Below are positions 1 to 171 of a DNA stretch of 1,291 nucleotides, one piece after another. The notes under the pieces were generated by a model. That model did no database searches. It was given only the letters and a program-made list of their open reading frames with translations, and was not told the origin of the DNA. The stretch lies in assembly GCF_003334255.1 (NCBI RefSeq), contig NZ_QOWU01000166.1; one strand, given 5' to 3'. The position numbers were made by a program, and so were the translations under genes. Position 1 is the stretch's first letter. The number at the start of each line of letters is the position of its first letter. The DNA is from Escherichia coli. GTDB lineage: Bacteria; Pseudomonadota; Gammaproteobacteria; Enterobacterales; Enterobacteriaceae.

Positions 1-171
1 GCGCGCCTTGATTTATTAACCGGTAAACGGGTGGTGTCTGTCCAGAAAGATGGTCGCAGAATTGAATATACGGCGGCCTCTCTGGATGAGCTTAACCGGG
101 CGATCAATGATGCTGAGTTGGTACTGGGGACAACCCGCCGTCGCCGTCGTCCGCTGGGAGTGAGGTTATGA
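1..171 (+). CDS. W: Head-tail joining / head completion protein, gpW family; 3' end only, start lies upstream of the window
   Basis: Frame +1 is open from base 1 to the TGA stop at 169-171 and translates to ARLDLLTGKRVVSVQKDGRRIEYTAASLDELNRAINDAELVLGTTRRRRRPLGVRL*. This resembles the C-terminal part of lambda gpW as I recall it (...[52 protein letters not shown]), including the TGKRV.[10 protein letters not shown] core and the arginine-rich tail. Its position directly upstream of the portal gene matches lambda gene order (A-W-B). The match is from memory, not from a search. Confidence 0.85.
   Translation, partial: ARLDLLTGKRVVSVQKDGRRIEYTAASLDELNRAINDAELVLGTTRRRRRPLGVRL
157..165 (+). promoter_or_regulatory. 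Probable ribosome-binding site for the portal gene, embedded in the last codons of the W-like gene
   Basis: The sequence GGAGTGAGG at 157-165 contains GGAG (157-160, 7 nt before the ATG at 168) and GAGG (162-165, 2 nt before it). The purine-rich element is at a typical distance from the start codon. Seen directly in the sequence; function is inferred. Confidence 0.55.

Follow-up and report, generated by a model that had tools for sequence, protein, structure and literature searches.

Five consecutive arginines in a phage 21-type gpW head-tail adaptor: a basic segment of the C-arm that probably docks on the portal by charge

Introduction

Five consecutive arginines, encoded by five CGY codons, lie near the C-terminus of the small W-like gene with which the stretch of DNA analyzed here (the window, 1,291 bases) begins. 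This raises the question of what such a basic cluster contributes to the protein, and whether the repetitive codons that encode it have a role of their own.

The gpW family of head-tail adaptors is characterized by a requirement for DNA stabilization in heads, for the addition of gpFII, and for tail joining. Several phages possess dodecameric adaptors that sit under the portal and are anchored by an extended C-terminal segment on its clip, i.e., gp15 of SPP1, gp6 of HK97, gp4 of P22, and gp49 of 80alpha. Phage lambda gpW has been argued to be structurally related to these other head-tail adaptors, from which it differs by being much shorter and by lacking two N-terminal helices (PMC11661146), and an earlier classification held gpW to be unrelated to the Ad1 adaptors (PMC4362835). 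In the lambda virion, as described in the accessible text of a cryo-EM study (PMC10721106), gpW residues 55–68 form an extended “C-arm” on the portal, the tip of which pairs with gpB residues 320–324 by β-sheet augmentation, and the electropositive top of the adaptor lies opposite the electronegative bottom of the portal. The same text describes a DNA clamp, in which 12 copies of gpW Arg32, located in a β-hairpin that lines the channel, act on the double-stranded DNA. Residues 55–62 are disordered in the free protein, as determined by NMR (PMC3208555). Folding of gpW does not require the tail, but the assembly of the connector critically depends on it (Maxwell et al., 2000, as cited in the accessible part of PMC3208555); going by its title, as given there, the functional result of Maxwell et al. 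concerns the last three residues and not the arginines. Finally, gpW is needed for DNA stabilization in filled heads, according to work cited in the accessible parts of PMC10721106 and PMC4362835.

Identity of the Genes

Two annotated phages match the window closely at the DNA level, Escherichia phage PhiR12_2_star with 99.9% identity and phage 21 with 96.6%. In both annotations, the matching region comprises the end of “head-tail joining protein W” (gene 3 of phage 21), followed by “portal protein B”. The features of the adaptor gene and of the junction with its neighbor are the following:

1–171, + strand: gpW-type head-tail adaptor gene, 3′ part (codons 13–68 and TGA), from the translation; homologue of phage 21 gene 3 and lambda W
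55–60, + strand: R31-R32 of the β-hairpin (QKDGRR), from the sequence; R32 is equivalent to the DNA-clamping residue of lambda
127–168, + strand: adaptor C-arm G55–L68 (GTTRRRRRPLGVRL), at the positions equivalent to lambda residues 55–68
136–150, + strand: five-arginine run R58–R62 (CGC CGT CGC CGT CGT), from the sequence and its translation (frame 1)
151–153, + strand: P63, closing proline of the basic segment, invariant in an 8-sequence alignment of closer relatives
157–160, + strand: portal Shine-Dalgarno sequence GGAG, inside W codons G65–V66; phage 21 (OL657228) has an annotated ribosome-binding site at the corresponding place
168–171, + strand: ATGA overlap of the portal start (ATG, 168–170) and the W stop (TGA, 169–171), from the sequence and annotated relatives
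168–1291, + strand: portal gene (lambda-type), 5′ part, codons 1–374 of 530, from the translation and a TIGR01539 match

The W-like gene is read in frame 1 and stops with TGA at 169–171. The complete protein of 68 amino acids, MVTVAELQALRQARLDLLTGKRVVSVQKDGRRIEYTAASLDELNRAINDAELVLGTTRRRRRPLGVRL, was taken from PhiR12_2_star; positions 1–171 of the window encode its residues 13–68. This protein matches Pfam PF02831 (E 2.9e-22, residues 4–67 covered), NCBIfam NF047331 (46.7 bits, cutoff 33), and PHROG 75 (E 1.6e-28), and a phmmer search against the PDB aligns residues 4–66 without gaps to residues 4–66 of lambda gpW (1HYW/8K38, E 1.2e-15), the solved structure of which is ordered as helix, hairpin, helix, and C-arm. 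The gene is located between terminase A and portal B, the annotated neighbors in PhiR12_2_star and phage 21, and the order terminase-W-portal is also found in lambda, N15, phi80, and Gifsy-1. By its sequence, the gene is thus a member of the gpW family of head-tail adaptors, of the phage 21 gene 3 type; the family matches and the gene order bear out the preliminary description of the window, which had called it W-like.

The portal fragment matches TIGR01539 (portal_lambda, E 1.5e-146) and is 61% identical to lambda gpB. The portal ATG at 168 follows the Shine-Dalgarno sequence GGAG at a distance of 7 nt. The same ATGA overlap is present in lambda, N15, phi80, an Stx1 phage, an Enterobacter phage, and a metagenomic locus (L209), and Gifsy-1 has an equal 4-nt overlap with a GTG start (GTGA). 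The codons of the adaptor tail PLGVRL and the stop (window 151–171) carry both GGAG (157–160) and ATGA, which places them under a double constraint, from the protein and from the initiation of portal translation.

The Arginine Run and Its Counterparts in Lambda and Phage 21

Positions 136–153 of the window, CGCCGTCGCCGTCGTCCG, read CGC CGT CGC CGT CGT CCG and encode R-R-R-R-R-P, i.e., R58–R62 and P63 in the numbering of the 68-residue protein, exactly as the preliminary description had it for sequence, frame, and encoded residues. When the 68 residues, 12 of which are arginines, were shuffled in 200,000 trials, a run of at least five occurred in 0.4% of cases (p = 0.004), which argues that the clustering of arginines is non-random.

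Lambda gpW (PDB 1HYW, 2L6Q, 8K38, 8XOW; PF02831) and the W protein of the window both have 68 residues and align without gaps at ~50% identity. The slot formed by residues 58–62 is RRRRR in the window and QRRRG in lambda (Q58, R59, R60, R61, G62), and is followed by P63 in both. Given the equal length and the gapless alignment, the step from three arginines to five corresponds to two substitutions, Q58R and G62R, and to no insertion. QRRRGP had been given correctly as the lambda sequence with the shorter run at this position, the difference being one of substitution at unchanged length. Common to both proteins are the QKDGRR hairpin with R32 (QKDGRRIEY, residues 27–35, in the window, including the conserved DGRR) and the layout of the C-arm, G55-x-T-(five-residue basic slot)-P63-x-G-hydrophobic tail; both genes lie between terminase A and portal B, and in both the stop codon overlaps the portal start as ATGA. 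By contrast, the tail ends with PLGVRL in the window and with PAGFYV in lambda, and the portal strand that corresponds to the docking site is TNNVT and AAPVR, respectively. A basic C-arm with a short hydrophobic end is a sequence pattern that is present and conserved in the W protein of the window, and its physical contact with the portal is known in lambda alone.

The product of phage 21 gene 3 (head completion protein; M81255, OL657228) is of the same type as the window protein, with the tail PLGVRL and a portal clip that is identical to that of the window. It differs by R59C (codons CGG TGT, resulting in RCRRR) and by S52 in place of L52. The CGG TGT sequence, at 2736–2741 of the phage 21 locus (L002), equivalent to window 136–141, is found in 5 of 120 loci from IMG/VR. 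Since phage 21 is viable with RCRRR, an uninterrupted run of five arginines is absent from this classic laboratory phage.

Conservation of the Arginine Cluster in the gpW Family

The preliminary description would have been contradicted by homologues in which the run is absent or unconserved, and the comparison gave a different picture. One sequence was taken from each 50%-identity cluster, and in 31 of these 36 diverse representatives the tail contains a pair of arginines or a longer run. The longest run measures one arginine in five sequences, two in 13, three in 13, four in four, and five in a single one, which is the window type. A family alignment of 27 sequences has only seven columns with at least 90% conservation, one of which is R60, and both R60 and P63 are invariant in an alignment of eight closer relatives. 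The residues substituted into the slot are for the most part small or polar, and an acidic residue C-terminal to the cluster occurs in none of the 36 representatives.

Close relatives display the slot variants RCRRR, SRRRR, RRRGR, RSRGR, and SRRPR, and viable isolated phages differ likewise: the slot is SRRQG in phi80, QRRRG in lambda, SRRRG in N15, GRRRA in Gifsy-1 (protein of 67 aa), RCRRR in phage 21, and RRRRR in PhiR12_2_star. With RCRRR in phage 21 and only RR in phi80, no single flanking arginine is essential. Judged by these alignments, the exact number of arginines is clearly flexible, and the window stands at the upper end of the range covered by a conserved RR(R) motif.

The Portal Partner

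Two further features of the window belong to the portal's predicted docking site for the adaptor:

996–1184, + strand: portal clip domain, residues 277–339 (lambda gpB 280–342), expected to receive the adaptor; limits from the accessible text of PMC10721106, transferred by global alignment
1116–1130, + strand: portal residues 317–321, TNNVT, equivalent to lambda gpB 320–324, AAPVR, the adaptor-pairing strand; from the alignment and the accessible text of PMC10721106

The accessible text of PMC10721106 assigns residues 320–324 to the “portal wing”, whereas its own domain limits put them in the clip (280–342); they are treated as clip here.

The clip is the domain of the portal that has diverged most from lambda (46% identity, compared to 62–82% for stem, wing, and crown). 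In windows of 25 residues, identity is lowest (16–20%) at lambda gpB 291–325, corresponding to portal residues ~292–321 and positions 1041–1130, a region that includes the docking loop and strand. Across nine W-portal pairs, drawn mainly from isolated phages, the type of W tail co-varies with the type of clip strand: GPAGFYV occurs with AAPVRLGG, RPLGVRL or APVGVRL with TNNVTLGG or TNSIKLGG, and APARFSL with GANVKFNG. The contigs of four distant homologues yielded one intact W-portal pair, one split portal, and two truncated contigs, and a search for related loci from 8 closer sequences returned only loci 99–100% identical to the query. By alignment, the extra acidic residues of the window-type clip are E286, E290, D301, E309, D316, and D335. 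The clip contains 11 acidic residues in the window type and 8 in lambda, in keeping with two additional arginines, but only 7 in L209, which has a five-arginine tail, and the trend between tail arginines and clip acids is inconsistent in these nine pairs.

Elsewhere in the portal, residues N22–Q31 (NGGGAGFGGQ, window 231–260) form a glycine-rich segment that is conserved with lambda (HGGGSGFGGQ) and lies just after the leader that is annotated as cleaved in lambda gpB.

The Codon Repeat at the Nucleotide Level

The run contains only 2.5 copies of the hexamer CGCCGT. Tandem Repeats Finder reports no tandem repeat at the run, even at a minimum score of 30, and a general repeat search, from which units of 1–3 bases were excluded, did not report the hexamer. 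CGT and CGC account for 54% of the arginine codons in the neighboring head genes; five consecutive CGY codons have p ~0.05 and, given these five, simple arithmetic assigns the (CGCCGT)x2 pattern a chance of 1 in 4.

Among the 112 IMG/VR loci with RRRRR, the first codon is CGC in 54, CGA in 30, and CGG in 28, and arginine is kept in all of them; the hexamer repeat is thus confined to one of three common alleles, the one that starts with CGC. A shorter, Shigella-type allele reads CGA CGC CGC CGA, and the three arginines of lambda are encoded by CGA CGC AGG, with no repeat. As the nucleotides vary synonymously while the arginines stay, it is the protein on which selection acts. The repeat in the nucleotides is weak and follows from the use of common codons for five arginines.

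Length Alleles

The IMG/VR sample consists of 120 loci, which were chosen by the flanks of the run. They carry RRRRR (112 loci), RCRRR (5), RRRR (2), and RRR (1). In complete E. coli genomes, the W-portal junction (window 100–190) is present in 1,832 of 5,426, or in 1,844 as counted with a probe specific for three arginines (3R). These genomes usually have two copies of it (the median) and at most five, which means that near-identical adaptor/portal modules often coexist in one cell. The 3R probe identified 18 records with 3R (64-nt span) and at least 16 with 4R (67-nt span) in the 5,426 genomes, the rest being 5R (70-nt span). Overall, ~1–2% of copies differ in length, with 3 such variants in 120 IMG/VR loci and at least 34 in 1,847 E. 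coli records. The 3R allele is shorter by exactly one CGCCGT unit, and the 4R alleles have one codon fewer. A 7R probe detected neither a 6R nor a 7R allele in the 5,426 complete E. coli genomes (0 records in the 95–99% identity band). The top matches of this probe were rejected as expansions, as they consist of 3R alleles joined from two pieces.

Variants with in-frame insertions or deletions are enriched in the run, which comprises 5 of the 68 codons and to which 5 of 14 protein clusters map (p = 0.002; 0.012 when these are taken as 4 events). A 3R prophage (strain CFSAN061770) and a 4R prophage (strain M8) contain complete sets of head and tail genes with no pseudogene flags. Next to the Shigella-type 4R allele, the portal breaks off at 351 aa in L004, L081, and L095, three of the four loci examined, and has its full length of 530 aa in the fourth (L005). 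The former three are probably defective prophages, in which the 4R allele is perhaps free of selection.

That the repeat could change its length by slippage had been anticipated, and this holds insofar as natural in-frame 4R and 3R alleles exist, the latter lacking one CGCCGT unit; such alleles are rare (~1–2%), though, and all of them are contractions. They fit occasional replication slippage together with tolerance of a shorter arm.

Other Reading Frames and Masked Homology

Frame 2 of the window is open from 50 to 163 (MVAELNIRRPLWMSLTGRSMMLSWYWGQPAVAVVRWE). Many database entries named “gpW” begin as normal W, switch into this frame, and end with ...AVAVVRWE, with a junction that varies between residues 26 and 58 (e.g., P0034, P0044, P0053, P0059–P0063, and P0083–P0086). 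The scatter of these junctions speaks for errors of assembly or for pseudogenes with a frameshift, and against a programmed shift. Reading in frame 3 continues without a stop from the arginine run into the start of the portal gene (window 136–200), and two database proteins (P0030 and P0038) read ...GTTRPSASSAGSEVMKRTPVLID..., a W-portal fusion that results from a frameshift in or near the run; both are single-member clusters and hence likely represent mutations or errors.

In tblastn searches with the default low-complexity filter, every W match ends at residue 51, short of tail residues 52–68 (window 118–168). The filter masks the arginine-rich tail, so that homology searches silently ignore these residues.

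Docking on the Portal and Alternative Explanations

In the proposed mechanism, twelve adaptor subunits would dock beneath the portal once the DNA is packaged, and each 14-residue arm, disordered when free, would stretch over the acidic portal clip upon docking. The last residues, PLGVRL, would add a β-strand to the portal strand at residues 317–321, while the arginines would provide the positive charge that steers the arm to the negatively charged portal surface and holds it there. How many of the five slot residues between T57 and P63 are arginines would be uncritical, relatives functioning with two to five and this lineage filling all five positions, and the repetition of CGY codons would permit rare in-frame slippage deletions, giving rise to 4R and 3R alleles. 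Since the accessible text of PMC10721106 states no residue-level contacts of lambda R59–R61 with gpB, we infer the charge-docking role of the R58–R62 side chains, which, by analogy with lambda, may touch acidic residues of the portal in the window phage. We put the probability that R58–R62 are the basic middle segment of a lambda-type C-arm that docks on the portal by charge at roughly two in three.

The strongest of the rivals denies the run a specific role: it would be a tolerant, disordered low-complexity linker that drifts in composition and length, while only the last few residues matter. A run length of 1–5 across the family, the interrupted slots of close relatives (RCRRR, SRRRR, RRRGR, RSRGR, SRRPR), the 3R and 4R alleles in apparently intact prophages, and the masking of the tail by BLAST's low-complexity filter all agree with such drift, as does the published functional result, which, by the title given in the accessible part of PMC3208555, concerns three C-terminal residues. 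Free drift is difficult to reconcile, however, with R60 being at least 90% conserved and with pairs or longer runs of arginine in 31 of 36 sequences at or below ~50% identity, or with the bias of slot substitutions toward small or polar residues, the lack of acidic residues C-terminal to the cluster in these 36 representatives, and the preservation of arginine through synonymous changes; we consider a neutral linker unlikely. Poly-arginine is a generic nucleic-acid binder, and the run might instead touch the packaged genome at its end, inside the portal-adaptor channel, and contribute to its retention. The need for gpW to stabilize DNA in filled heads (cited in the accessible parts of PMC10721106 and PMC4362835) would agree with this. 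In lambda, however, the DNA is clamped by the channel-lining Arg32 of the β-hairpin (accessible text of PMC10721106), and as R31 and R32 are conserved in the W protein of the window, the role of a DNA clamp is already filled, which makes DNA binding by the run improbable. Of the “DNA or portal contacts” suggested earlier for the basic tail, contact with the portal fits the C-arm described in the accessible text of the lambda cryo-EM study, whereas contact with DNA is disfavored by the Arg32 clamp.

Other explanations place the function in the nucleotides or in the length of the run. The GC-rich CGY stretch could tune translational coupling, or form a structure that controls portal expression: it lies 15–32 nt upstream of the portal ATG, just upstream of the Shine-Dalgarno sequence (157–160) and the ATGA (168–171), and has a GC content of 83%, compared to 55% for the window. 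Yet the predicted fold of positions 100–200 is not more stable than that of shuffled sequences (z = +0.99), no Rfam match (E up to 1) was found, and neither was a promoter or terminator motif in 1–400; moreover, the nucleotides vary synonymously with the amino acids kept, and lambda retains ATGA coupling without any codon repeat. A role at the RNA level is accordingly given very little weight. Still less credible is a slippage-prone contingency repeat, the length of which changes often and adaptively. The run resembles simple-sequence contingency repeats in that a few codons are repeated in tandem and natural alleles differ in length while staying in frame, and the loss of one CGCCGT unit in 3R and of one codon in 4R, the enrichment of in-frame indel clusters (5 of 14, p = 0.002, or 0.012 as 4 events), and additional frameshifts inside the run (P0030, P0034, and P0038) could be read in this way. 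It is unlike them in having too few units (2.5 hexamers, and none found by Tandem Repeats Finder), and in showing rare variants, contractions only, and no sign of switching. A fast-switching contingency repeat does not fit length variants that amount to just ~1–2% of copies, include no expansions, and are common to related strains, the latter suggesting inheritance over recurrent switching. Alternatively, the arginine count might be a tunable factor that sets how strongly adaptor and portal bind or which partner is bound, which appears a long shot. If it were true, 3R, 4R, and 5R alleles could shift which portals an adaptor seals, or the speed of terminase replacement after packaging, and cross-assembly between co-resident lambdoid prophages would be affected.

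Significance

Docking of the C-arm on the portal by charge remains the preferred reading of the run, and the feature as such is already known: it belongs to an annotated phage gene that encodes a textbook adaptor of the lambda family, the C-arm of which has been seen bound to the portal by cryo-EM in lambda. The arginine run is a real, known feature, i.e., the basic part of the gpW C-arm in the natural form that is richest in arginine. It is ordinary, and the preliminary description judged it rightly in grading its own observation as minor. What is added here are refinements that open no new question and matter little: five arginines as the upper extreme of RR(R), their origin by substitution relative to lambda, the co-variation between arm and clip strand, and the rare 3R and 4R alleles in seemingly intact prophages. 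These refinements could guide the mutagenesis of adaptor-portal recognition.
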